From Prevotellaceae bacterium (GTDB taxonomy: Bacteria > Bacteroidota > Bacteroidia > Bacteroidales > UBA932): a DNA stretch of 39,540 nt. Numbering within the stretch: the first letter of the stretch is position 1; every line of letters starts with the position of its first letter. Below the pieces are notes generated by a model. It worked only from the letters and a program-made list of their open reading frames with translations. It was not told the origin of the DNA and searched no databases. The position numbers and the translations under genes were made by a program. The stretch is taken from NCBI GenBank assembly GCA_031287815.1, contig JAITSM010000069.1, forward strand, positions 1 to 39,540, in the 5' to 3' direction. Below, piece after piece: positions 3,945-38,533 of this stretch.

Positions 3945-5165
3945 TTACAGTTGGCGGAAACAGCGAACGGCAGCGTTTTGTTGTGCTGCACGGCCGTGTT
4001 TGTATATTTGATCGCATGTATATGCAAGTCCGTCTTCGCGTAAATCGATTTGTAGACCATCTTCCCTGTTTTTGTCATTAGCGTACCATCCCTCAGCACT
4101 CGTAGTTAACTGGCCATTCGATACCGATCGTTCATTTGCGAATCCATAATAATCAAGTCGTGGTGAACAACTGGACGTCTTGGATCGTAGATATTGACAG
4201 ATTGTGGCATCCGATCCCATAGTTTTGGTCATGTTATCAAAATCATCAGTAACCGGCAATAACCATCCGGGTGGGCATATACCTTGTACATTGCCGGTAG
4301 AGCTACTTGACCCGCCGGCATAAGAAGCATATACTTGCGCCCATGGATAACTTCTTCCACATTCATCTTCCGTACAACCGCTCATAGCAGAACCTATAGT
4401 AGAACCATTATAGCTTGCTAATTTTACATTCTGCGCCAGCCACCACTTGCTATCTGACATCAATACAATCCTGTAATATTTGCTATCCCGGCTATCTTTT
4501 ATATAAGCTTCCCAATTCTTCGCGCCGCTGGTGCGTTGCTGGCAAAGGTGCGTAGCATCAATATATAAATCGCTTCCCTGATAAGGGCAGAAAATGCCCG
4601 GACAGTCTGTTTTATCTCTGATAGTAGTAGGCGTAATGGTCAATGCCGAAGTGGCAAGCGTTGTCCCGGTTACTGTTTGAGAGGTTGTGCCGTTTGCTGC
4701 TGCCAGGATAAACGGCGGCGTGCCACGCAAAGTATAAGTTCCGTTGTTCGCTGTTACATTCGGCGGGTAGTCGGAAACATAGGCGCACCAATTGAATTGT
4801 GCCGGCACATTGCTCAACGTTACGGTTACCGTAGCGTTGTATGTGCCGGAACTCCCTGACGTACCTTGCAGCCAAAAGCCTTTGTCGTTTCCTGTTTCCC
4901 GCGAAGGAGTGCCGACAGTAGCTATCGGCGTTCCGGAAACAGGCGCACGCATCCAACTGCCCAACGGCACATTGTCTACTATTGCCCGGTAATCTACAAA
5001 TACCCATACCTTGGAATTGTGTGTACCGGTACGCGAGCTATTCAACCATGATACATTAAATGTAACGGTGTTGCTTTTTGCACTAACCGGCGTAACTGTA
5101 ACGCCACTTTGCGCGCTTACGGCAACGCTTAAAAGCATTGCGAAAAAAAAGAAAAGTTTTTTCAT
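3945..5165 (-). CDS. Secreted paralog A: signal peptide, conserved N-domain and C-terminal Fib_succ_major (FISH)-type domain
   Basis: The signal peptide is MKKLFFFFAMLLSVAVSAQ. It shares motifs with 17389, 25678 and 37181 (V.TFxV.W...VWVxVD; FNWCAY.SDYPPN; YTLRGTPPF). The FISH hallmarks are WWLAQN, CPPGWLLP and the VRCFRQL end. Confidence 0.8.
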   Translation of the reverse strand: MKKLFFFFAMLLSVAVSAQSGVTVTPVSAKSNTVTFNVSWLNSSRTGTHNSKVWVFVDYRAIVDNVPLGSWMRAPVSGTPIATVGTPSRETGNDKGFWLQGTSGSSGTYNATVTVTLSNVPAQFNWCAYVSDYPPNVTANNGTYTLRGTPPFILAAANGTTSQTVTGTTLATSALTITPTTIRDKTDCPGIFCPYQGSDLYIDATHLCQQRTSGAKNWEAYIKDSRDSKYYRIVLMSDSKWWLAQNVKLASYNGSTIGSAMSGCTEDECGRSYPWAQVYASYAGGSSSSTGNVQGICPPGWLLPVTDDFDNMTKTMGSDATICQYLRSKTSSCSPRLDYYGFANERSVSNGQLTTSAEGWYANDKNREDGLQIDLREDGLAYTCDQIYKHGRAAQQNAAVRCFRQL

Positions 5166-5573
5166 AATATTTTTTATTAAAAGGTTTAATATTTTTCTCT
5201 ATGTTCTATTGTCTACAAGTCTATGTTCTGTTTTCGCAGCTTCAGGGTTGTTTTCAAACACAAACCTTTTTCATAAAACAACCCCTTACTGCGATTTTTT
5301 ATTCGCTGACAATTTGTATAACTTTTGTCTGTCTATATGGATTCTATCGAACAAAAATGAAACGTGAACTGATATTAACTCTCTTAAAGGTGTAGACAAC
5401 CTGGTGTAAAAGCCGACATCAACTCACGTTGAAAGATACGGCATTTATTCAGTTACACCTAAATTTGTCTACTCTTTAAGACTTGAACAAAAGCCATTGA
5501 AATGTTATTCAATCCCGATAAATAAAGAACATCATTACCGCTGCAAATATAAAACAATATTTTTAAATTCCAA
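5166..5573 (-). promoter_or_regulatory. Promoter plus ~370-nt structured leader (type II) of paralog A
   Basis: The -33 TTG (5571-5573) and -7 TATATTTG (5544-5551) are on the minus strand with a 19-nt gap. Stacked helices pair 5474-5480/5383-5389, 5465-5472/5392-5399 and 5453-5458/5404-5409. The conserved proximal hairpin is at 5236-5292. Confidence 0.6.
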
Positions 5574-6014: not shown

Positions 6015-6096
6015 GGTGCGTGACATGTGCTTGTCACGGTGCGTGACATGTGCTTGTCACGATGTGTGACATGTGCTTGTCACGATGCGTGACATG
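6015..6096. repeat. 23-bp tandem repeat x3.6, each unit with an internal palindrome
   Basis: GGTGCGTGACATGTGCTTGTCAC occupies 6015-6037 and 6038-6060, with a variant at 6061-6083 and a partial unit at 6084-6096. Each unit contains GTGACA..TGTCAC. Confidence 0.85.
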
Positions 6097-6358
6097 TTTT
6101 TACCTGCCTTATGCCCTATGCGATGTGCGAGTCGCAAATCGCAAATCCTGTGCTTGGCTGTCTTCTCACCGCACGTTGGAGAGATAGTGTTTTGGCTTTT
6201 ATTATCCTGCGCCCGGAAAGTCCAAACAAATGATGAGTAAACGAGTGTAAAATACCTATTATATGGTATTGCGGGGTCTTCCGCTTGTAAGTACTTTTGC
6301 ACTGTTTTTTTTTAGTTCGTTTGAATACGGCATTTACCTTTAAAAATACAAAATATTC

Positions 6359-11346: not shown

Positions 11347-11436
11347 GACTAAAGCCTGAAGCGAGACGACTAAAGCCTGAAGCGAGACGATTAAAGCCTG
11401 AAGCGAGACGACTAAAGTCTGAAGCAAGACGATTAA
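11347..11436. repeat. 21-bp tandem repeat x4.3 (GACTAAAGCCTGAAGCGAGAC)
   Basis: Units lie at 11347-11367, 11368-11388, 11389-11409 and 11410-11430, followed by a partial unit. Confidence 0.9.
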
Positions 11437-11479
11437 AAATAAAATAAACTAAAAACCAAACATTTAAAACAAAAAAAAC

Positions 11480-12330: not shown

Positions 12331-12340
12331 AGAACTTTAA

Positions 12341-12430
12341 ATATGAATTATGAATTATGAATTAGCTTGCGCCAGCAACCTCATACTTCATAACTCATAA
12401 TTCATACATCATAATTCATAATTATTTTGC
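12341..12430. repeat. 'Word' hairpin, ATGAATTAT/ATAATTCAT arms, GCGCCAGC core
   Basis: Sequence: atatgaattatgaattatgaatta-gcttGCGCCAGCaacc-tcatacttcataactcataattcatacatcataattcataatt. Confidence 0.8.
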
Positions 12431-12462: not shown

Positions 12463-12756
12463 ATGTCTTATTTAGAAGAAGTAAAAATGGGGTTAAGAGC
12501 GCTCAAGCCGGAGCTGTCCGTGAAATTTCACGTGCGCGCTATCGGTTTATTCGGCTCTATTGTCCGCAATGATTTTTCCCCATCCACCAGCGATATAGAT
12601 ATTATTGTCGATTTTTCGCAACCGGTAGGCGTAGAATTTATAGACCTTGCCGATTATCTGGAAAATAAATTCCACAGGAAGGTAGACCTCGTTTCAAGGA
12701 GAGGCATAAAACCCCTGTATTATTCCGCCATAGAGAAAGATATTGTTTATGTCTGA
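12463..12756 (+). CDS. mntA: MNT-type nucleotidyltransferase (type VII antitoxin MntA-like)
   Basis: It carries the GLFGSIVRNDFSPSTSDIDIIV minimal NTase motif and overlaps the downstream HEPN gene by 14 nt. Confidence 0.8.
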   Translation: MSYLEEVKMGLRALKPELSVKFHVRAIGLFGSIVRNDFSPSTSDIDIIVDFSQPVGVEFIDLADYLENKFHRKVDLVSRRGIKPLYYSAIEKDIVYV

Positions 12757-13081
12757 AAGAAATGCCGGAATATTATTGAACGACATCATCGAAAGCGGTG
12801 AAAAAATTCTTCACTACGTTCAAGGCTTAAGCTACGAACAATTCCTTGATGACGACAAAACTATTGACGCCGTCATCCGGAACTTTGAAATCATCGGGGA
12901 AGCGGCCAACCGCCTTCCCGACGGCTTTAAAGAAAGCCATCAGGAGATAGATTGGTATAGAATCAGGGGATTTCGCAACAGAATAGTACATCACTATTTC
13001 GGTATAGATTATAGCATCCTTTGGCAAATTAAAGAAACCTTTTTGCCGGAAATGTTATCGGCAATCAAGCAATTTATTTAA
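12743..13081 (+). CDS. hepT: HepT/DUF86 HEPN-domain toxin-like protein
   Basis: It carries the Rx4HxY motif (RNRIVHHY) and is about 110 aa, the usual DUF86 size. Confidence 0.8.
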   Translation: MFMSERNAGILLNDIIESGEKILHYVQGLSYEQFLDDDKTIDAVIRNFEIIGEAANRLPDGFKESHQEIDWYRIRGFRNRIVHHYFGIDYSILWQIKETFLPEMLSAIKQFI

Positions 13082-13251: not shown

Positions 13252-16527
<3,276 letters not shown>

Positions 16528-16643
16528 AAGTTAAGAACTAAAAGTTAAAAACTAAGAGTTGGCTGGCGCTAGCTAACTTTTAGTTTTTAACTTTTAACTT
16601 TAAAAAGGCGCCAGCCCACTCTCCATTTTCCATTCTCCATTGA
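16528..16643. repeat. 'Word' hairpin (AAGTTAAGAACT arms, GGCTGGCGCTAGC core) plus GGCGCCAGCC core and TCTCCATT arm
   Basis: Segment 16528-16601 is palindromic around ggctggcgctagc. At 16602-16642, the sequence aaaaaGGCGCCAGCCcactctccattttccattctccattg is complementary to 16853-16876, on the far side of the MITE-like copy. Confidence 0.75.
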
Positions 16644-16850
16644 ATAAGCCCGAAGGGCTTGAATTTTCATAACCCCATGCAAGTGCAGCGAAGCGTAACG
16701 CAGCATGGGGCAACATGGCACTTCCTGCTTTTCGCGCGGCGCACAGGTTTTCCGCTATGCATGGACAGTGCTCCGCGCGAAAGGCAGTAGGGTCTTCGTA
16801 CCCCCGCACTGCGTACGGGGTTATGAATATTTCGCCCCTTCGGGGCTTTA
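16644..16850. repeat. Structured MITE-like repeat, copy 2 (inverted relative to 291..506)
   Basis: Its reverse complement aligns with 291-506 along its length. The two internal hairpins differ in sequence but remain self-complementary (CCGCAGGC..GCCTGCGG versus CCCCG..CGGGG). Confidence 0.7.
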
Positions 16851-16916
16851 TTTAATGGAGAATGGAAAATTGAGAATGCTCGCCACCTTTCGGTAAAAAA
16901 ATTTTTCGAAAAAAAC

Positions 16917-17388
16917 TTGCAATTAAAAAATATTGTTTTATATTTGCACCGTTCTTTGACGTATTGAAAAGGATATAAAAAAAAATATCGCTTTAACTTT
17001 TATTCTGCGTATACTTCGAAATCAGGAAAATTTCAACTATGTCCGAATATAAGTCTGAGCAACCTCGCCAAGAGTGGATGGGGGTTGTAATACTTATCGA
17101 CATAGTGGGTTTCCTGAACCTCGAAGTATGATAAATATAACACCCCTTTCCACTTTTGGTTTTTTAGTGGAATTGAGAAAAAATCACCATAAAAGTTAAA
17201 GAAACAAATTGTAGAAAATGTGTGTTAAAATTTTCTGCAATGATTGGCAGCGGATAAAAATCGCAGCAGGGGGTTGTTTATAAAGTTGGTTTGTGTTTGC
17301 AAAACAGCCCCAAAGCTGCGAAAACAGAGCATAGACTTGTAGACAATAGAACATAGACAAAAATATTAACCATAAATAAAAAAATGCT
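16917..17388 (+). promoter_or_regulatory. Promoter plus ~440-nt structured leader (type I) of paralog B
   Basis: TTG (16917-16919) and TATATTTG (16939-16946) have a 19-nt gap. Helices are ATACTTCGA (17011-19)/TCGAAGTAT (17121-29), CAGGAAA (17023-29)/TTTCCTG (17110-16), CTATGTC/GACATAG and ATAAGT/ACTTAT. Loop CCAAGAGTGGA (17068-78) pairs with TCCACTTTTGG (17149-59), followed by T6. The proximal hairpin is at 17263-17319. Confidence 0.65.
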
Positions 17389-18306
17389 ATGAAAAAAAAT
17401 TTCTTTCTTTTCGCCATGCTTGCAAGCATGGCAGCAAACGCCACCGTAAAGGTAACGCCGCTTTCTACGGATTATTCCACCAACAAAGTAACCTTTAAAG
17501 TGGAATGGACTGGCACCCCCTCTGCGCCCCACAATAATCGTGTGTGGGTATGGATAGATTTTTGTCCGGTAGCAGGCACAACGCCGGCAACTTCTTTTTC
17601 TACCGCTACCATTTCCAACCCCGCTAAAACAGGCGGGAACGGCACGATTACCGGAGCCACCACGCGCGGATTTTTCATTGAATACAGCAGCGCCACCAAC
17701 GCCGGTACTACCGTTACCGCCACCCTGAGCAACGCCGCCGGCAAATTCAACTGGTGCGCCTACGGCAGCGATTTCCCGCCGAATGCGGTGGACAACTCCG
17801 GCGGCGGCTATGACTTGAGGGGCACGCCGCCGTTTATTATCAACGGCTCGATTGAATGGAGTTCCTACACTTATTCCGGCGGTACGATAAATACCCTCAC
17901 CGACGCTACCGGCTGTCCGGGCGTGTTGTGCGGCAAGGACGGCGAGTCGGCAGGATTATTGAACTGCTGCATTCCCGGAACAACGAATTGCAGCGGGACG
18001 TGTAAAACTACCGGGACATATACATCCAATGACGGCGCGTGCACCAATGCCTGCAATACTGCATATGTACAGGTGAGAAACCAATGCGGAAATGTAATAA
18101 ATGCGACAAGCAGTACATATTATAATAGTGGTTGCCGTATAGGATGTGCTGCGAGCTGGAGCCAAAGCTGCCGGGACTGGAACCAAGACTGTAGCTGGAT
18201 CATCGAAGAGCTTGACAAATGCCAATACTGCTGTACCGCCCAAGGATATCGGTACTATAATCTTGTTTCACGCGAGGGCTCTTCCGATTGTTCTTGTTGT
18301 AACTAA
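17389..18306 (+). CDS. Secreted paralog B: signal peptide, conserved N-domain and Cys-rich C-terminal module (no FISH domain)
   Basis: It shows MKKNFFLFAMLASMAANA, then VTFKVEWTG..NNRVWVWIDFCPV, FNWCAYGSDFPPN and YDLRGTPPFI. The last ~130 aa contain about 24 Cys and end in ..SSDCSCCN. Confidence 0.8.
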   Translation: MKKNFFLFAMLASMAANATVKVTPLSTDYSTNKVTFKVEWTGTPSAPHNNRVWVWIDFCPVAGTTPATSFSTATISNPAKTGGNGTITGATTRGFFIEYSSATNAGTTVTATLSNAAGKFNWCAYGSDFPPNAVDNSGGGYDLRGTPPFIINGSIEWSSYTYSGGTINTLTDATGCPGVLCGKDGESAGLLNCCIPGTTNCSGTCKTTGTYTSNDGACTNACNTAYVQVRNQCGNVINATSSTYYNSGCRIGCAASWSQSCRDWNQDCSWIIEELDKCQYCCTAQGYRYYNLVSREGSSDCSCCN

Positions 18307-23100: not shown

Positions 23101-23983
23101 GAAAGCCGACATTGTCCCGGCGCTGCTTTACGGGCACGGGCAAGCCATGTCGAAAAATGATTCCCTGTATTTGAAAGACGGCGTGCTGGCGACGAAAATC
23201 CTGCCCCGCATGCCCTACCGCGAAGGGGAAACGTACCAGGAACGGTACAAACAGGCGGCGCGCCTCTTTAAAAGGGAACATGCAGCGTTGGCCGATGAAA
23301 TAGACCGCTCCGGAAATCCCTACTACCGCTACAAGCTGATGAAAAACTACCTCTACAAGGGGCCTGTCCTCGAATGGTACCTGCGGGTAAAGGCGGCGAT
23401 GGAAAAGAATTACCGGCTGTTCGAGCAATTAGTCCCGGCAAAGGCCGTCATCACCGATATAGGCTGCGGATACGGCTTTTTGTCCTACATGCTGGCTTTC
23501 CGGTCGGGCGAACGGCGCATTACAGGCATCGACTACGACGCCGAAAAGATTGCCACCGCGCAAAATAACTTCTCCAAAACCGACCGGCTGCAATTCATCG
23601 CAGCCGATGCGTCGGCCTTCGCCTTCGCCCCTTCCGACGTATTTATCCTGAACGACGTGTTGCATTACCTGCCGGAAGAAAAACAGCACGCCGTGTTGAT
23701 GCAATGCGTAAAGAATTTGAACGCCGGCGGGAAAATCATCATTCGCGACGGCGACAGGGAACAGCGCAGGAAACATGCGCTCACCCAATGGTCGGAGTTC
23801 TTTTCCACCCGCCTGCTGAAGTTCAACCGGGCGGACTATGCCCTGCATTTCATCTCCACCACCTCTCTGGAAGCGTTTGCGCAACGCCACCACTTATCGC
23901 TGTCGATTGTGGAAAACAGCAAGTACAGCTCTAACAGGATACACGTGCTTAGCCGGGAGCCGGGAGTGAAGAGTGAAGGGTGA
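20120..23983 (+). CDS. Tri-domain fusion: MMPL/RND-like exporter, PlsC-type lysophospholipid acyltransferase and SAM-dependent methyltransferase
   Basis: It has two multi-TM bundles (about aa 270-410 and 680-800). The acyltransferase motifs are HX4D (NHQSVID) and FPEGTRS. The methyltransferase motif I is ITDIGCGYGFLSYMLA. Its start overlaps the GT2 stop (ATGA at 20120-20123). Confidence 0.8.
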   Translation: MIRIFIACYYFFRTRRILFYALGGLLTATMICLAWQIGWREDINSLLPQTEDTRSIGTVFKHVRVKDKIAVLITSRDTAHPAAPETMIQGCEAFFSRLLQTPAGRSHIRKVQSTVDSRLAESLHQYVMEQLPAFLDDAGYARLDSLLQPPQLEQQLAQQYSRLLSPLGMVSSKFIAADPLNLSGNILKSLEALEPDSRYALYDGHIFSDDKRYLAAFISPVFGAGELSRNEALVEEIERTIAAVEQQYPALSAAYFGGIPVGIYNARQIKSDAAAAMAVTALLIGLVIIFAFRRKSAVWLILLPVLMGGLFALALMYVIQGAISTIAVGAGSVILGVALSYSIHVFCHSLHAPSAEQLIRELAYPMTIGSFTTIAAFAGLAFMHTEALRDFGLFSCFTLIGTTLCCLVFMPHLLTFHRPPPRRLMRRIEKWTAYPFEKNGVLILLIVLVFGVSCFFCGKVTFNADMERLNYLPAPLAQAEKVLKDVFQGDAPTVYLVAVGATPDEALRHYRQAAEKCQSLKEASLIKDYSSAHHLLLPAAEQQERIDRWNAFWTPGKRAWLQTNLPAMAEKYKFKAHSFDGFLQRLDKDYQPVDYMQPGFLDTFVLNEWIEDAGGLPVAIIQAQLPEENKERVYQAFESDRHLVILDKTYFAGKFSTLVNEDFNALLFIVSVIVFLSILASYGRIEIAVVTFLPMLVSWVIILGLMALFGIEFNVINIIISTFIFGIGDDFSIFVSDGLLLEYKTGQKIIASHKTAIFFSAFAVIAGMGAMIFSKHPALYSISVTSVIGMLAILLISYTVQPFLFKLFITGRTAKRKFPHTWYSLLITVTALTVFVAGSLFLTLASYILFLLPVRKKAKQAFFHYLLYGFGFLQLYVMPNEKKVRQNPSRETFEKPAMIIANHQSVIDIMQALTWHPKIIMVTKAWVSRSPLFGKIARFAGFVDITKGYEPAVAHIRQYMDDGYSVVIFPEGTRSPDGKLQRFHKGAFYLAEALKADIVPALLYGHGQAMSKNDSLYLKDGVLATKILPRMPYREGETYQERYKQAARLFKREHAALADEIDRSGNPYYRYKLMKNYLYKGPVLEWYLRVKAAMEKNYRLFEQLVPAKAVITDIGCGYGFLSYMLAFRSGERRITGIDYDAEKIATAQNNFSKTDRLQFIAADASAFAFAPSDVFILNDVLHYLPEEKQHAVLMQCVKNLNAGGKIIIRDGDREQRRKHALTQWSEFFSTRLLKFNRADYALHFISTTSLEAFAQRHHLSLSIVENSKYSSNRIHVLSREPGVKSEG

Positions 23984-24106
23984 AGAGTGAAGAGTGAAGG
24001 GTGAAAAGGGTGAAGAGTGAAGAGTGAAGGGTGAAGAGTGAAGAGTGAAGAGTCACCCTTCACCGAGATACTCATCACCCATCACCCTTCACTCTTCACC
24101 TTTCAC
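23965..24106. repeat. 'Word' hairpin of GTGAAGA/GTGAAGG words and their complement, spanning two convergent stop codons
   Basis: The left arm (23965-24052) is gtgaagagtgaagggtgaagag... The right arm (24052-24106) is tcacccttcac...cttcactcttcacctttcac. The stop of the 20120 gene (23981-83) and the radC stop (24103-05) both lie inside the arms. Confidence 0.8.
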
Positions 24107-25064: not shown

Positions 25065-25484
25065 AATTTAGGGGACTACATAAATAATTTAGGGGACTAC
25101 ATAAATAATTTAGGGGACTACATAAATGATTTAGGGGACTACCTAAATGATTTAGGGGACTACCTAAATGATTTAGGGGACTACCTAAATGATTTAGGGG
25201 ACTACCTAAATGATTTAGGGGACTACCTAAATAATTTAGGGGACTACATAAATGATTTAGGGGACTACATAAATGATTTAGGGGACTACCTAAATGATTT
25301 AGGGGACTACCTAAATGATTTAGGGGACTACATAAATAAATTAGGGGACTACATAAATGATTTAGGGGACTACATAAATGATTTAGGGGACTACATAAAT
25401 GATTCAGGGGACTACCTAAATGATTCAGGGGACTACATAAATGAATTAGGGGGCTACATAAATGAATTAGGGGACTACATAAAA
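25065..25484. repeat. 21-bp tandem array, ~20 units (consensus RATTTAGGGGACTACMTAAAT)
   Basis: The 420-bp array has an exact 21-bp period. Variant units occur in runs (ACATAAAT versus ACCTAAAT; AATTT, GATTT, GATTC, GAATT). There are no unique spacers. Confidence 0.95.
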
Positions 25485-25677
25485 TAGAGGAAGGACAAGT
25501 TTTTTGTACGGGGATTAAAATATGCCGGACGGCTTAGAACGCCAAAGCGTAAATCCAAAACAAAAAAACCAATGGCGGCAAAAAATGTTTGGTTGCCGAA
25601 GAACGCTTCGCCCTTGACGCTTTACCCTTCACCCTTGACGCTTTACCATTGACGCTTTACCGCTTCACTTACCTTTT

Positions 25678-26637
25678 TTATCTTACACACAATAATGGTT
25701 GATAGTAGTTTCTCCCGCAATTATTGATTTTCCACCATCTCCATTGCCCGCGATACACACCACATGACGTAGCTAGCAATTCACCAAAGTACCATAATTT
25801 CATCGTGGTGCCGCTGCAATCATTGCACACATGGTTATTCGACGCGCATCCATCGTTTATCCACGCACCGGTCGGGCCCTCTACACCCCAGATAGCGGTA
25901 CGCTCAGTGTTCATTATTTGGACTTCCGTAAGGGTCGGGTAGCGCCAACCGGATGGACAGCCGGTCGTACCATCACAGTTAGCATGTGAAGGCATGACAG
26001 CGTTTTTAATTTCTATTCCTAAACCAACATAAGTACTCGCTTCGTCAGCTATCGCATCCCTGCAATGAGTGCTAAACGCTATTAACCCTTCCACACATAT
26101 TCCGCCATTGTGTACTTCATCTCGTCCTACGCCTCCGGGACAGCCTGTCGCGTCGGTCAAAGAAGTAATAGTCGTTACGGCATATTTGTCATTATTTACA
26201 GTCGTACCATTTACAATAAACGGTTTTGTTCCTTTTAACGTATAGCTTCCGTTGTTATATGATATGGCGTTGGGCGGGTAGTCGCTGCCATAGGCGCACC
26301 AGTTGAATTGCCCTGCTGCGTTGTTCAGTTTGGCGGTAACGGTCGAAGGATTGGTGGTTACATAAAAGCCGCGCATATTGCCGGTAACGGTTAGTATACT
26401 GCCGGCGGTAGCCGTAGCCCCGCTGATAACGGCTTTTTCAAATGTGCCCGAAGAAGTTCCCGACACCGGGCACAAATCCACAAACACCCACACGCGGTCG
26501 TTGGCGACGTCGCCTGTCCATTCCACGCGGAAGGTTACGGTTTTGTTGATATAATCCGTCGAGAGCGGCGTGATGTACACATTGGCGCTTGCGGTTATGC
26601 CGGCAAGCATTGCTAAAAAGAAAATTTTTGTTTTCAT
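25678..26637 (-). CDS. Secreted paralog C: signal peptide, conserved N-domain and divergent FISH-type C-terminal domain
   Basis: I place the start at the internal ATG (MKTKIFFLAMLAGITASA). Motifs are VTFRVEWTGDVANDRVWVFVDLCPV, FNWCAYGSDYPPN, YTLKGTKPFI and CPSGWRYPT, and it ends in LLCVR. Confidence 0.8.
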   Translation of the reverse strand: MKTKIFFLAMLAGITASANVYITPLSTDYINKTVTFRVEWTGDVANDRVWVFVDLCPVSGTSSGTFEKAVISGATATAGSILTVTGNMRGFYVTTNPSTVTAKLNNAAGQFNWCAYGSDYPPNAISYNNGSYTLKGTKPFIVNGTTVNNDKYAVTTITSLTDATGCPGGVGRDEVHNGGICVEGLIAFSTHCRDAIADEASTYVGLGIEIKNAVMPSHANCDGTTGCPSGWRYPTLTEVQIMNTERTAIWGVEGPTGAWINDGCASNNHVCNDCSGTTMKLWYFGELLATSCGVYRGQWRWWKINNCGRNYYQPLLCVR

Positions 26638-26972
26638 AAAAATGTTTTTTAAGTTAATATTGTTTTTCGCAGCCTTTGGGGTTGTTTCCAAACACAAACT
26701 TTTTCCCATAAAACAACCCCTTGCTGCGAATTTTTATTCGCTGCCAATCCCCATCCGTTCCATTTTTACTTAAGGTACTATAGACAAAAAATGAAACGTG
26801 AACTTATTTTGCCGTGTATAGAGGTTCTGAGCAACCTTGTCACAAAAACAAACTAAATCCACGTTAGTTCATGGTATTCTCTTTGTGACAGTAGAAATTG
26901 CTCAGATTCCTATACACAGAAAAAAGAACGTTAATAACGCTGCAAATATATTACTTTATTTTTTAATTGCAA
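26638..26972 (-). promoter_or_regulatory. Promoter plus ~300-nt structured leader (type II) of paralog C
   Basis: On the minus strand, TTG (26970-72) and TATATTTG (26943-50) have a 19-nt gap. Helices pair 26910-17/26814-21, 26898-905/26827-34 and 26882-90/26838-46. Loop AACGTGGA (26858-65) pairs with TTCACGTT (26795-802), next to a U-tract (26786-94). The proximal hairpin is at 26669-26727. Confidence 0.65.
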
Positions 26973-27001
26973 CTGTTTTTGAAAAAATTTTTGTCGGGGA
27001 A

Positions 27002-28351
27002 CTACCGGATACGCTTTACCGCTTCGTCGAACGGGATGCTTTGCTGCACGCCGGAGTTGAGGTCTTTGAGGGAAATGACGCCGCGCGCCAGCTCCTCTTC
27101 CCCGACAATGGCGGCAAAGGGAATGCCGCGCCGGGCGGCGTAGTCGAATTGTTTTTTGAGTTTGTGGCGGTCGGGGTAGAGTTCCGCCACTATGCCCTGC
27201 GCCCGCATTTGTTGTACATATTTCAAGGCTTGCCGTTCTTCTGCGCCGCCCAGGTTGAAAAACAGCACGCGCGTGCTTTCGGCGGCAGCGGCGGGGAATT
27301 TGCCCAGCTGCCACAGCACGTCGTAAATGCGGTCGGCGCCGAACGAAATGCCCACGCCCGAGACATTGCTCAACCCGAAAATGCCGGTGAGGTCGTCGTA
27401 ACGCCCGCCGCCGCAGATGCTGCCCATTTCCGCATCTTTCGCCTTCACTTCAAAGATAGCGCCGGTGTAGTAGTTCAGCCCGCGCGCCAGCGAAAGGTCC
27501 AGTTCGAGGGTTTGCCGGAGGGGCGCTGTTTGCAGGTAATCCAGTATTTTTTGCAATTCTTCCACGCCCGCCATTCCCGCAGGGGAAGCGGCCAGCGTCG
27601 TTTGCAATGCCGCCAGTTTTTCGCAGTTGCTTCCGGAGAGTGATAAAACCGGCTGCAATTTTTCAATCGCCGCCGCCGGAATGCCTTTTGCAAGCAATTC
27701 TGCCGTTACGGCTTCGCGCCCGATCTTGTCCATCTTGTCTATCGCTACCGTGAGGTCGACCAATTTATCCGCTGCGCCCATAATATCGGCAACGCCGCTC
27801 AACACTTTGCGGTTATTGAGTTTTATCGCCACATTTATATCCAGCAGGGAAAATACTTCGTCGATAATTTGCAGCAGTTCCACCTCGTTCAGCAGCGATG
27901 CGCTGCCGATAACGTCGGCGTCGCACTGGTAAAATTCGCGGTAGCGCCCTTTTTGCGGGCGGTCGGCGCGCCATACCGGCTGCAGCTGGTAGCGTTTGAA
28001 GGGAAAAACAATGTCGTTCTGGTGCTGCACCACAAAGCGGGCAAAGGGCACCGTCAGGTCGTAGCGCAATCCTTTTTCGCATGTTTTTAATGCCAGCGCC
28101 GCGCTGTCGGCGAGGTCGCCGGCCGCCACGCCGGCAAAAGCGTCGCCGGAGTTAAGGATTTTGAACAGCAGCTTATCGCCTTCGTCGCCGTATTTCCCCA
28201 GCAGCGTGGAGAGGTTTTCCATTGCCGGCGTTTCAATAGGCGCATAGCCATACTTTTTATATACATTTCGAATGGTGTCGAAAATATAGTTCCGCCGCGC
28301 CGTTTCAAGCGGCAGGAAATCTCGCGTACCTTTGGGAATAGAGGGCTTCAT
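27002..28351 (-). CDS. hisS: Histidine--tRNA ligase
   Basis: The 449-aa protein starts [14 protein letters not shown] and has class II motifs (FRYERPQ-like [19 protein letters not shown]; GGGRYDDL). Confidence 0.97.
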
Positions 28352-28358
28352 TTTTTTA

Positions 28359-28443
28359 AATTATGAATTATAGATTATGAATTATGGGTTATGAATTATG
28401 GGTTATGAGTTGGCTGGCGCCGGAGTTTATACTTCATAATTCA
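28359..28443. repeat. 'Word' hairpin (ATGAATTAT/ATGGGTTAT words, GGCTGGCGCCGG core)
   Basis: It fills the gap between the stop of the 28441 gene and the hisS start. The right arm overlaps the stop codon at 28441-43. Confidence 0.7.
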
Positions 28444-29826
28444 CCGGAATATATGCAGGCTGCCTTTGTATTCCGAAGTGTTGTACTGCACGCCGTCCCA
28501 GCCTTCGCCGTTAATTACGTAGTAATAGACGCCGTCGGCTGCGTTGCTGCCGGCGCCCATCCACTTGCCGTCCCAGCCCTGCCATTCGTCCAGGCGGCCT
28601 TCGTAGCGATACGCCAGCGCGCCCGAGCGGCTGAAGATATACACCTGGATATGTTCTATCGACTCCGGCTCTTTGCCTGTAACGAAGCGGAACACGTCGT
28701 TATAGCCGTCGCCGTTTGGCGTGAAAGCGTTAGGAATAGCGTCGGTGCTGAATTTCGACGGGGAAATAATCAGGCCTGTTTCCGTGCTGTCGGCGCAACC
28801 GGAGGCTGTATTGTAAACGGTTAAGCGCACGACATAGCTGCCCGGCACATAGCCGTCCACCCAATCGTTTTTGTACGGCGAATGAGGGGTTACCGGCAGG
28901 GGCGGCACGGTAGTGGAGTCGCTCCACATGACTAATTGCCCGTAATTTTTATTGGCGTCGCCGAAGCCTTTCCAGTAGTATTTGTCTGCATTCTTGCTCT
29001 TCTCCGAAGAAAACTGTACGCGGTATAACGCTTCGCCTTTCATGGGGTTCTCGGAGGCCGTTTCCCACCGGCCGTCCGCCCATGCTTCGGCGGTGATTTT
29101 TGCATACGCGGCAATGGCCGGCACGGTGTAGGGCGTGGTATAGCTGGCGCTTTTGCCGAACGCGTCCGTAACGGTTACGCTGTAGTTTGATTCTTTCAGC
29201 GGCGGCGGCGCGGCGATAATCGTGTTATAACTGTTGCCCCGCTGCTTCCACGATTCGTCGGCGCCTTCCACCCCTTCGTGGATATTTTCGCCGGAAGTCC
29301 ACCGGATAGCTTGCCAGCCGCTAAAAGTAGAATCGCCGGTATGCGACGGCGAATGTAAAAATTCTTCAAAATTATAAATGGTATAGCCGGCGCGCATCTT
29401 TGGCGTGGTCGTCATTTCCAATCGCAAACCGTTGCACTCGTTGAAGGAGGTGATCGTGTCGATTTTGAAGTTATCAAAAAACACCCAGCACGAAAACGCC
29501 GTGTCGCGCAACGTATTTTTGACCTGCACCCGGTACCCCCCGTCCATTGTAATCTCCAGCGAAGAAGCGGTTACGCCCGGCTCGTCTTTCTGTATAGTGA
29601 AACTTGCATCCGCCGGATTAAGCATCCGCCATGTGAACGTAGAAGCCTGTCCGTCGATGTCCCGCGCGGTTAGCGTGGCGGCGGTTTTGTCAAAAAAAAC
29701 AAATACCTGTTCCGGCTGCCCGGTCAGCCATTGTGTAGGTTTCACCGCATCGGGGCTCACGGCCGACAACTGCGCCGCCGCCGCCAATGGAACAAATAAA
29801 AATATCAGGGAAAAGTACTTTTTCAT
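28441..29826 (-). CDS. Secreted protein with T9SS type-B (gliding-motility C-terminal, CHU_C-like) sorting domain
   Basis: The signal peptide is MKKYFSLIFLFVPLAAAAQ. The C-terminal IPNAFTPNGDGYNDVFRF...GVYYYVI...GSLHIFR is typical of the TIGR04131-type domain. Confidence 0.8.
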   Translation of the reverse strand: MKKYFSLIFLFVPLAAAAQLSAVSPDAVKPTQWLTGQPEQVFVFFDKTAATLTARDIDGQASTFTWRMLNPADASFTIQKDEPGVTASSLEITMDGGYRVQVKNTLRDTAFSCWVFFDNFKIDTITSFNECNGLRLEMTTTPKMRAGYTIYNFEEFLHSPSHTGDSTFSGWQAIRWTSGENIHEGVEGADESWKQRGNSYNTIIAAPPPLKESNYSVTVTDAFGKSASYTTPYTVPAIAAYAKITAEAWADGRWETASENPMKGEALYRVQFSSEKSKNADKYYWKGFGDANKNYGQLVMWSDSTTVPPLPVTPHSPYKNDWVDGYVPGSYVVRLTVYNTASGCADSTETGLIISPSKFSTDAIPNAFTPNGDGYNDVFRFVTGKEPESIEHIQVYIFSRSGALAYRYEGRLDEWQGWDGKWMGAGSNAADGVYYYVINGEGWDGVQYNTSEYKGSLHIFR

Positions 29827-30122
29827 TTTTTGTAAAATAATTTACCCACGCGCCCGATATGTTCCATCAAATCGGGGTTGGTTAGCTGGTGGTAGATAGA
29901 CAAGTCGACGGTATAGGGAAGCAGCAGGTCGTCCAATGCCTGCGTCACTTCTGCGGCGACGGTTCCGTCCAGCCGGCCGCCGCGCATCGCCAGGTCGATA
30001 TCGGAATTGGCGCGGTAATTGCCTTTGGCGCGCGAGCCGTACAATACGACCTCTTCCACTTCGGGAAACCGTGCAAATACGCCGTGAAGTTTTTCAATAT
30101 CATTGTCCCGCAGCCCGAACAT
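29823..30122 (-). CDS. MNT-type nucleotidyltransferase (antitoxin-like)
   Basis: It carries the VVLYGSRAKGNYRANSDIDLAM motif. Its stop overlaps the start of the 28441..29826 gene (ATGA). Confidence 0.8.
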   Translation of the reverse strand: MFGLRDNDIEKLHGVFARFPEVEEVVLYGSRAKGNYRANSDIDLAMRGGRLDGTVAAEVTQALDDLLLPYTVDLSIYHQLTNPDLMEHIGRVGKLFYKK

Positions 30123-30529
30123 TATAGAAGCCCCTCCATCTTTTTTTCAAACTGTGTAAACAGCCGGAAATAGGTATGGGTGATTTTCGCCACTATCTCC
30201 TGTGCGACGGCTTCATTGTAGGTGTGTACCGAATCGATACGGCTACTTATCATCTCCATCCAATGGCGCCCGTCGTCGATGATACCCCTTTGGAATGCCG
30301 TACGGATAGCGTCGCGGCTTCCCATAATCGTTACGTGGGCTTGCTCGTATAGCAGATAATCTTTCATCACATTCCACGCCAATTCGTAGGTGTACTCAAA
30401 GGCCTGTATCAGCCCCTGCTGCTCCAGTTCGTTGAGCGTTTCTTTCTCGAAAAACTTGCGTAACTGCTCCAATGCTTTTTGGTAATTTGCAAATCGCTGT
30501 TTCCACCGTATATCCTGCGTTCCGGTCAT
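30122..30529 (-). CDS. HI0074-family NTase substrate-binding protein (HEPN fold, toxin-like)
   Basis: It has a [15 protein letters not shown] start and an Rx4HxY motif (RIDSVHTY). Its start overlaps the tyrS stop (ATGA at 30526-30529). Confidence 0.75.
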
Positions 30530-36732: not shown

Positions 36733-37180
36733 TTGCCATTAAAAAATATTGTTTTATATTTGCACCGGTTATTATGTGCTCTTTGACATTCTGAAATAGA
36801 TATAAAAAATATATATCGCTTTAACTTTTATTCTGCGGATACCAGAAATCTGGAAAATTTCAATCACGTACGAATAATAAGTAAAAGCAACCTCGCCAAG
36901 AGTGGATGTGGGTTGTTCTGCTTATTTACGTGATGGGTCTTCCAGAACCTCTGGTATCAATAAGCATAACGCCCATTCCACTCTTGGTTTTTTAGTGGAA
37001 TCAGGAAAAAATCACCATAAAAGTTGAAGAAACAAATTGCAGAAAACGTTTATTAAAAACTTCTGCAATGATTGGCAGCGGATAAAAATTCGCAGCAAGG
37101 GGTTGTTTTATAAAGTTGGTTTGTGTTTGCAAAACAACCCCAAGGCTGCAAAAATAATAACAATTTAAAAATTTACTTTT
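36733..37180 (+). promoter_or_regulatory. Promoter plus ~420-nt structured leader (type I) of paralog D
   Basis: TTG (36733-35) and TATATTTG (36755-62) have a 19-nt gap. Helices are GATACCAGA (36838-46)/TCTGGTATC (36950-58), CTGGAA/TTCCAG, CACGTA/TACGTG and AATAAG/CTTATT. Loop CCAAGAGTGGA (36896-906) pairs with TCCACTCTTGG (36977-87), followed by T6 (36988-93). Further hairpins are at 37037-44/37061-68 and 37092-37149. Confidence 0.65.
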
Positions 37181-38323: not shown

Positions 38324-38407
38324 GTATAATTTGAACCAAATAATAAAATAGAGGCGTGCTACTGCTGCAACTGAAACCTATACAAATGAATTAAAATATC
38401 AGACAAC

Positions 38408-38533
38408 CGAAATGTGTACGTACGCAATCGAAATGTGTACGTACGCAATTGAAATGGGGACGTACACATTCGCAATGGGGACGTACACATTTGAAATGGG
38501 GACGTACACAATGGCGATGGGAACGATAATAAA
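38408..38533. repeat. 21-bp tandem array x6 (CGAAATGTGTACGTACGCAAT x2, then TGAAATGGGGACGTACACATT-type units)
   Basis: Units start at 38408, 38429, 38450, 38471, 38492 and 38513. The core GGGGACGTACA resembles the GGGGACTACA core of the 25065-25484 array. Confidence 0.85.

Follow-up and report, generated by a model that had tools for sequence, protein, structure and literature searches.

Does the DNA ahead of a secreted protein gene, paralog C, encode an RNA leader, and does such a leader carry one stable hairpin or switch between folds? The question is raised by positions 26638-26972 (minus strand) of contig JAITSM010000069.1 from a Prevotellaceae bacterium (assembly GCA_031287815.1), whose 39,540 nucleotides (nt) were analysed as a whole and are referred to as the window. 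The original prediction, made from the letters of the sequence, described a three-helix hairpin at this site (leader C), with a loop pairing to a downstream tail, as a second independent instance of a design also present in leader A of the window. In the analysis reported here, two mutually exclusive folds were found in leader C; their structure is conserved and covaries, and the sense strand is the one selected. For a result obtained by computation alone, the structure has unusually good support. The leader probably sets how much of gene C is made. Whether it does so as a four-segment, attenuator-like bistable leader, in which one hairpin (beta) with a U-rich tract terminates transcription and the long hairpin antiterminates, is in our judgement evenly balanced.

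Promoter and leader set

Exactly four hairpins of this architecture were found in the window, A, B, C (26814-26917, minus strand) and D, each with the same kind of promoter upstream and a paralogous secreted protein gene downstream; the window paralog proteins are 34-39% identical to C. A 20-nt pattern taken from the leaders' 3' module (see below) was used to scan species-representative genomes and gave at least 41 loci, 7 of which were chance matches in unrelated taxa; the remaining loci came, among the matches listed, from five Prevotellaceae metagenome-assembled genomes (MAGs), with at least about 14 copies in one of them. A protein-guided metagenome scan added a distant lineage (QMCD/QMCE contigs, 31-50% protein identity), in which the hairpin design is kept. 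Altogether 53 hairpins were detected and 37 full-length leaders parsed, from uncultured Prevotellaceae/Bacteroidales genomes and metagenomes; counts out of 37 refer to this set. The design is also kept in L079, which precedes the gene of the homologue closest to protein C (56% identity) and where the core of the 3:4 helix described below measures 13 bp.

Promoter C lies 25 nt upstream of helix 1 and agrees with the consensus TTTG / TANNTTTGY that PMC8748976 quotes for Bacteroidales. A TAnnTTTG box was present in 36/37 homologous leaders, and nearly all of the 37 had it upstream of helix 1 at a distance of 25-75 nt. Transcription of leader C is predicted to start near 26936-40, and 26638-26972 would comprise the promoter and a roughly 300-nt 5' leader of the paralog C mRNA. 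The non-coding stretch ahead of the gene measures 364 nt, back to the hisS stop at 27002.

The long hairpin

Fold L, the long hairpin, is built from three private helices (H1, H2 and H3) and an apical hairpin in which segment 2 is paired to segment 3 (positions of all parts are given in Table 1). The three helices of leader C were located on the minus strand where they had been predicted, each one or two pairs longer than described: helix 1 extends to 10 bp (26910-19 with 26812-21) and helix 2 has a ninth pair (T26906-A26826). Compared with dinucleotide shuffles, the folding of leader C gave z = -6.7. The junctions, AA(T) opposite (A)ACC and TTTCTAC opposite AGG, were confirmed as well and belong to a plan common to 37/37 leaders, H1 - (AA / RCC) - H2 - (AAUUUCA / RGG(G)U) - H3 - apical region.

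Of the 37 copies, 35 have a distinct 5' arm in H1, 29 in H2 and 36 in H3. For leaders A and C, the claim that the hairpins have diverged completely holds for the helix arms, which are unrelated, but not for the whole hairpins, which are identical at 68/114 positions owing to their common junctions and apical motif. Their tail motif was rightly called identical: the 18-nt sequence AGTTCACGTTTCATTTTT is present at just two places of the window, 5353-70 (A) and 26787-804 (C), against 0.08 occurrences expected by chance. With private helices, shared junctions and the loop-tail contact all supported, leader C does represent a second independent instance of the leader A design.

Covariation and strand selection

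Cognate arms of H1, H2 and H3 paired at 8.6/9, 7.0/7 and 7.9/8 positions on average over the 37 leaders, and non-cognate arms at 4.9, 4.2 and 6.0. Alignment of the natural sequences with MAFFT followed by RNAalifold recovered H2 and part of H1 only, because indels shift the arms out of register; junction-anchored extraction was used instead, giving a gap-free alignment of 29 type II leaders with segments anchored on the conserved junctions, the H3 register fitted within a small window and H1 and H2 unfitted. In this alignment 92% of the fold L cells pair (64% in shuffles, 33-43% with slid partners) and 0/500 shuffles reached the observed value; helix 2 is 100% paired and 7/7 of its pairs covary. 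Among 853 helix positions G.U was counted 28 times and A.C once, a ratio that points to selection of the structure in the gene-sense RNA strand and not in double-stranded DNA. Together with the promoter in 36/37 leaders and the helix covariation, this strand bias supports the original view of a leader RNA rather than a repeat acting at the DNA level.

The competing two-hairpin fold

The loop AACGTGGA (26858-65) and the tail sequence TTCACGTT (26795-802), after which comes TCATTTTTT, are complementary. This pairing had been described as a contact between loop and tail, and the complementarity is real: over the 29 type II leaders, 93% of the cells of this core pair, compared with 26-45% when the partner is slid. 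It is, however, not a small pseudoknot on a static hairpin but the core of a 19-position competing helix, in which AACGUGGAUUUAGUUUGUU (26865-26847) faces GGCAAAAUAAGUUCACGUU (26813-26795) with 18/19 positions paired, UCAUUUUUU following directly. This helix between segments 3 and 4 excludes the top of the long hairpin.

The alternative, fold K, consists of two hairpins. In alpha, segment 1 is paired to segment 2 around a local hairpin in which GAAAU and AUUUC enclose the 5' arm of H2; in beta, segment 3 is paired to segment 4, with a tip in which RGGU and ACCU enclose the 3' arm of H2, and the U-rich tract comes directly after. The local hairpin of alpha is formed in leader C by UAGGAAU (26906-12) and AUUUCUA (26892-98), that of beta by AGGUU (26833-37) and AACCU (26822-26); the H2 5' and 3' arms become the respective loops, and these two loops (H2, H2') are mutually complementary. 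Beta folded alone reached -24.3 kcal/mol with the tip AGGUU[GCUCAG]AACCU. When prefixes of leader C were folded, alpha was the minimum free energy (MFE) structure until the apical 3' half emerged, and the long hairpin afterwards; for the leader, fold L had -51.9 and alpha plus beta -35.8 kcal/mol.

Pairs specific to fold K were compared across leaders. For the GAAAU/AUUUC stem, the pair col8-col24 is GC in 17, AU in 5 and GU in 3 leaders, and 0/500 shuffles reached its covariation score. Duplexes of segments 1 and 2 (Y:X) reached down to -18 kcal/mol, and L010, L016, L037, type IIb and type I carry variants that compensate each other; this pairing was seen in most leaders and was weak in about a third of type IIa. 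Covariation of the loop-tail core is modest (3 pairs with double changes; 3/500 shuffles reached the observed score) because the core sequence is conserved; where only one side has changed, G.U pairing is nearly always still possible, and a true double change (AAUGUG/CACAUU) is present in L041. Beyond the conserved core, segments 3 and 4 co-evolve: their duplexes were 4.4 kcal/mol better for cognate than for non-cognate partners in type II (-17.6 and -13.2 kcal/mol; median rank 3 of 28) and 5.4 kcal/mol better in type I (-29.0 and -23.6 kcal/mol). The four type IIb leaders, A included, have a 3:4 helix of 15-19 bp and differ from each other by G.U-preserving transitions.

Alpha plus beta had the same energy as the full MFE structure in leader A, L028 and L041, and lay 2-20 kcal/mol above fold L elsewhere. 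With the tail as the end of the transcript, the MFE structure was fold L, its tail unpaired, in 22/37 leaders and fold K in 4/37, leader A among them. The 12 nt past segment 4 hold 5-10 U in 37/37 leaders (UUUUUU in type I, UCAUUUUUU in C), and the type IIb leaders keep this tract though no downstream partner needs those U's. The conservation of the junctions is explained by the second fold, since each junction must fit two structures, the rod and the local hairpins GAAAU[H2]AUUUC and RGGU[H2']ACCU. The same holds for all segments with two partners (junctions, apical AAACGUGGA, tail UUCACGUUU), which are conserved because both partners must be satisfied; arms with a single partner would drift through compensatory changes.

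Attenuator-like reading

Attenuators are recognised by mutually exclusive 1:2, 2:3 and 3:4 pairings in a 5' leader; these three pairings were found in leader C, and the U-rich tract directly after beta gives the attenuator layout. Beta and the U tract would form an intrinsic terminator, and the 2:3 pairing, locked by H1-H3, would act as antiterminator, so that RNA polymerase continues into the gene; the balance between folds L and K would be regulated. Several observations weigh against this. The U tract is interrupted in type II (UUUCNNUUUUU) and poor in part of the QMCD lineage (CCACGUUUAAAAGUUUA). A terminator scan did not call beta and found a 5-bp tip hairpin only, because the beta loop exceeds the limit of the scan. 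Most leaders, and C with them, are far more stable in fold L, so termination would need a kinetic trap or an additional factor. A sensor was not found, with neither an Rfam aptamer match nor a regulator gene beside the leaders. For leader C the on/off reading is further blurred, since AACGU (26928-32) pairs with ACGUU (26795-99) and the base of fold L can thereby engage the tail. The tail hairpin and the e:f / f:g module (see below), which lie 3' of the putative terminator, are left unexplained by an attenuator, and transcription of the leader and 3' ends at the U tract are themselves predicted. Because of the imperfect U tract, the dominance of fold L, the missing sensor and the tail engagement in C, we regard attenuation as having an even chance of being correct. 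A leader peptide was considered and rejected: an ATG is present in the GTTCTTT box of some leaders only (ACG in C), and the resulting open reading frames (ORFs) vary in length and frame.

Attenuators of the trp/pyrBI type and riboswitch platforms resemble leader C in their exclusive four-segment pairings, in 2:3 excluding 3:4, in a 3:4 helix followed by a U-rich tract, and in the 5' leader position directly after the promoter. They differ from it in that no leader peptide, aptamer, known protein or tRNA sensor was found in leader C. In contrast to both, the 2:3 pairing is here reinforced by three long private helices between spacers 1-2 and 3-4, the element as a whole forms a single inverted repeat of roughly 170 nt with a local hairpin in either arm, the loops of the two hairpins being complementary, and termination is a prediction. 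Messenger RNAs of the hok/sok type are alike in that a 5'-proximal alpha can form before its competitor, that the stabler fold (here L) needs refolding and that segments taking part in two folds are conserved; leader C, in contrast, comes without antisense RNA, toxin or 3' processing, and a kinetic role of alpha is suggested by prefix folds only. T-box leaders, too, have a long stem whose internal and distal loops are conserved, and a downstream choice between terminator and antiterminator, but leader C has no specifier-loop or T-box sequence, and the genes downstream encode secreted proteins and are not amino-acid genes.

When the whole window was searched with Rfam 15 at gathering scores, tRNA was the only family found and no T-box was matched; with permissive filters, 26600-27010 gave best scores of 11-20 bits against gathering scores of 40-153, and the leader matched neither a T-box nor any other Rfam family at E<=10. 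Literature searches returned no published description of the motif. The leader family is apparently undescribed and would be classed with attenuator-like leader switches. If the attenuator model holds, a structured leader of ~300-450 nt, absent from Rfam and from the literature searches, would control a major secreted/surface protein family of an uncultured Bacteroidales lineage; to our knowledge, few cis-regulatory RNAs besides riboswitches have been described from the phylum Bacteroidetes. What makes the architecture unusual is a single long inverted repeat in which either arm also folds by itself, with both global folds under selection and an energy gap that varies by paralog. It also exemplifies a rule, two-partner segments conserved and one-partner segments covarying, that could be used for finding other RNA switches.

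Other explanations

The leader might be a static structure in which the long hairpin alone counts, whether as a determinant of stability, as a site of RNase III-type processing or as a platform on which an RNA-binding protein docks; the loop-tail pairing would then be a tertiary pseudoknot, and the alternative pairings by-products of conserved A/U-rich sequence. Fold L does stand well ahead in covariation and is the MFE structure in 33/37 leaders, its internal loops are conserved in sequence as expected of protein-binding or cleavage-directing loops, and the family is co-regulated at the promoter level at least. We nevertheless consider a static leader rather unlikely, as the pairs specific to fold K covary too (GAAAU/AUUUC stem; 3:4 outside the conserved core), in several copies alpha plus beta equals fold L in stability, and the 3:4 helix (18/19 in C, 15-19 bp in type IIb) is too long for an intact H1-H3 rod and topologically incompatible with it, since forming it would require both rod ends to come together. 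Doubtful, too, is a switch of translation or mRNA fate, in which the tail hairpin and the e/f/g module would relay the choice between L and K to the A-rich stretch ahead of the AUG, so that ribosome access or decay would change and no termination would be caused. Start sites in Bacteroidetes depend on unstructured A-rich leaders, a general background that would suit such a switch, as would the poor U tract of some lineages and the position of the tail hairpin and the covarying e:f, f:g module between hairpin and AUG; but segment g ends ~28 nt short of the AUG in C (~25-75 nt in other copies), and type IIb leaders, though they have no tail hairpin, retain both the U tract and segments 3 and 4. 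Masking of the pre-AUG region by the UG-rich loop of the 3' module was rejected, since the loop has no complementarity to that region (cognate duplexes -5.3, shuffled -6.4 kcal/mol). Improbable in our view, if consequential, is a ligand-free bistable RNA toggle, each nascent transcript committing itself either to the terminating two-hairpin fold or to the read-through long hairpin. The odds would then be set by the private helix sequences of each paralog, and the complementary loops H2/H2' could serve as a kissing toehold for refolding; if true, dozens of surface proteins would show an RNA-level heterogeneity resembling phase variation.

An element acting at the DNA level, such as a recombinase or invertase site, an attC-like folded site, a cruciform or an inverted repeat resembling a miniature inverted-repeat transposable element (MITE), is very improbable, even though the hairpin is a roughly 105-bp imperfect inverted repeat with many copies per genome. 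Selection on one strand only (G.U over A.C, 28:1) speaks against it, as do the asymmetric junctions, which keep the same polarity relative to the gene in 37/37 leaders, and the arms, whose sequences differ in almost every copy and so make a shared recombinase site or recent transposition unlikely. Correia and ERIC repeats likewise are imperfect hairpins of ~100-150 nt in the leaders of many genes per genome, but they are near-identical mobile copies that share sequence along the whole element, as MITEs do; the leaders have distinct 5' arms (counts above), private helices and compensatory changes, and were duplicated together with a paralogous gene. Invertible promoters of Bacteroidales are flanked by inverted repeats that are shared within a class, and have an invertase nearby (PMC8748976); they resemble leader C in having inverted repeats upstream of surface-protein genes and the same promoter consensus. 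Here, by contrast, the promoter (26943-26972) lies outside the repeat (26812-26919) and not between its arms, the repeats are private to each locus, the asymmetry between the strands points to RNA, and Pfam searches of the window ORFs searched returned no recombinase, invertase or integrase. An integron attC site, a folded single-strand site expected 3' in cassettes that lack a promoter and near an integron integrase, is not indicated either, as the hairpin lies between the promoter and the 5' end of the gene and always precedes one paralogous family; no integrase was found in the window ORFs searched, R/L box motifs not having been searched for.

Table 1. Positions of the four leaders, the parts of leader C and gene C in the window.
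Feature	Position	Strand	Sequence and remarks
Leader A (type IIb)	5166-5560	-	Promoter to ATG of gene 3945-5165; hairpin 5380-5483
Leader B (type I)	16930-17388	+	Hairpin 17011-17129
Leader D (type I)	36746-37180	+	Hairpin 36838-36958
Promoter C	26943-26972	-	TTG 26970-72 (-33), 19-nt spacer, TATATTTG 26943-50 (-7); read from sequence
Segment 1 (Y)	26920-26932	-	AACGTTCTTTTTT, with conserved GTTCTTT box; in alpha, GUUCUUUU 26922-29 pairs with AAGAGAAU 26876-83 (prefix folds, alpha-alone fold)
Helix 1, 5' arm	26910-26919	-	CTGTGTATAG; originally predicted core GTGTATAG 26910-17
Internal loop 1	26907-08 / 26823-25	-	AA opposite ACC; conserved in 37/37 leaders as AA / RCC
Helix 2, 5' arm	26898-26906	-	TCTGAGCAA; originally predicted core CTGAGCAA 26898-905
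Internal loop 2	26891-26897 / 26835-37	-	TTTCTAC opposite AGG; conserved in 37/37 leaders as AAUUUCA / RGG(G)U
Helix 3, 5' arm	26882-26890	-	TGTCACAAA
Segment 2 (X + A5)	26866-26881	-	Apical 5' half; CCAUG 26870-74 pairs with CGUGG 26859-63 at the tip
Segment 3 (A3 + Y')	26847-26865	-	AACGTGGATTTAGTTTGTT; partner is segment 2 (fold L) or segment 4 (beta)
Helix 3, 3' arm	26838-26846	-	TTTGTGACA
Helix 2, 3' arm	26826-26834	-	TTGCTCAGA; originally predicted core TTGCTCAG 26827-34
Helix 1, 3' arm	26812-26821	-	CTATACACGG; originally predicted core CTATACAC 26814-21
Segment 4 (X' + tail)	26795-26813	-	GGCAAAATAAGTTCACGTT; 18/19 positions pair with segment 3
U-rich tract	26786-26794	-	TCATTTTTT; directly 3' of segment 4
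Tail hairpin	26756-26798	-	CGTTTCATTTTT 26787-98 with AAAAATGGAACG 26756-67
3' module	26666-26744	-	e GCAGCGAA 26737-44; f TTCGCAGC 26723-30; g GCTGCGAA 26666-73
3' module, inner stem	26711-20 / 26678-87	-	GGGGTTGTTT / AAACAACCCC; conserved UG-rich loop GUUUGUGUUUG
Paralog C gene	25678-26637	-	319 amino acids; ATG at 26637; signal peptide MKTKIFFLAMLAGITASA; N-terminal beta-sandwich domain common to a large family

The 3' part of the leader

Downstream of the U tract, the tail hairpin is present in types IIa and I and absent from the four type IIb leaders. The 3' module is strongly conserved across leaders, with segment f as UCGYAGC. Its pairings e:f and f:g are mutually exclusive, and covariation backs both, including in the distant lineage (GCAAUGAG / CUCAUAGC / GCUAUGA); the module thus has the appearance of a second switch-like element in these leaders. 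In some MAG loci a long palindrome of the kind found at gene ends (see below) is inserted between the 3' module and the ATG. An in-frame ATG in the loop of the 3' module (26707-09), which would extend ORF C to 343 amino acids, was rejected as start codon: the other leaders do not conserve it, and 26637 is where the deposited protein begins.

Gene C and its surroundings

Protein C had no Pfam match, and an exact-sequence look-up returned no record. Its AlphaFold model shows an N-terminal beta sandwich (mean predicted local distance difference test score 69) and had no PDB match at E<=0.001. The protein family has >330 members, all unnamed and from uncultured Prevotellaceae/Bacteroidales, with the N-terminal beta sandwich conserved and the C-terminal parts variable. 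At 17413-17432 (B), and at the matching sites of A, D and most MAG paralogs, the region coding for the signal peptide is a palindrome of ~20 nt (GCAATGCTTGCAAGCATTGC) that varies in a compensatory manner (GCCATGC...GCATGGC in B, a central TTATAA in D), which suggests a conserved hairpin ~25 nt into the paralog ORFs.

The gene content of the window is that of an ordinary chromosome (secA, hisS, tyrS, purD, a TonB-dependent receptor and a LytTR two-component system). Several kinds of repeat were noted. A 21-nt tandem array (19.9 copies, 95% identity) is located just 3' of the gene C stop (25066-25483), and other intergenic arrays beside paralog genes are found at 38403-38525, 11347-11437, 25606-25647 and 6017-6097, among them a 21-nt array downstream of gene D and a 23-nt array upstream of the leader A promoter; similar 21-nt arrays lie upstream of the leaders in L017, L041 and L063. 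Long palindromes were observed at gene ends (205-292, 12332-12423, 16524-16611, 23952-24100 and 28356-28421; also in L011, L017 and L033), their arms being 7- or 14-nt periodic repeats about a GC-rich centre (e.g. AGTTAAGAACTAAAAGTTAAGAGTTGGCTGGCGCCAGCTAACTTTTAGTTCTTAACT). Between secA and the leader B promoter, a GC-rich insert of ~250 nt (16620-16880) is flanked by the inverted repeats CCATTTTCCATTCTCCATT and AATGGAGAATGGAAAATTG; inserts resembling it are present in L057 and L066, and no Rfam match was obtained. Finally, nucleotidyltransferase and HEPN-family genes (HepT-like ribonuclease or nucleotidyltransferase substrate-binding protein) occur as pairs at 12463-13081 (plus strand) and 29823-30529 (minus strand), which look like toxin-antitoxin modules of the MNT/HEPN type.

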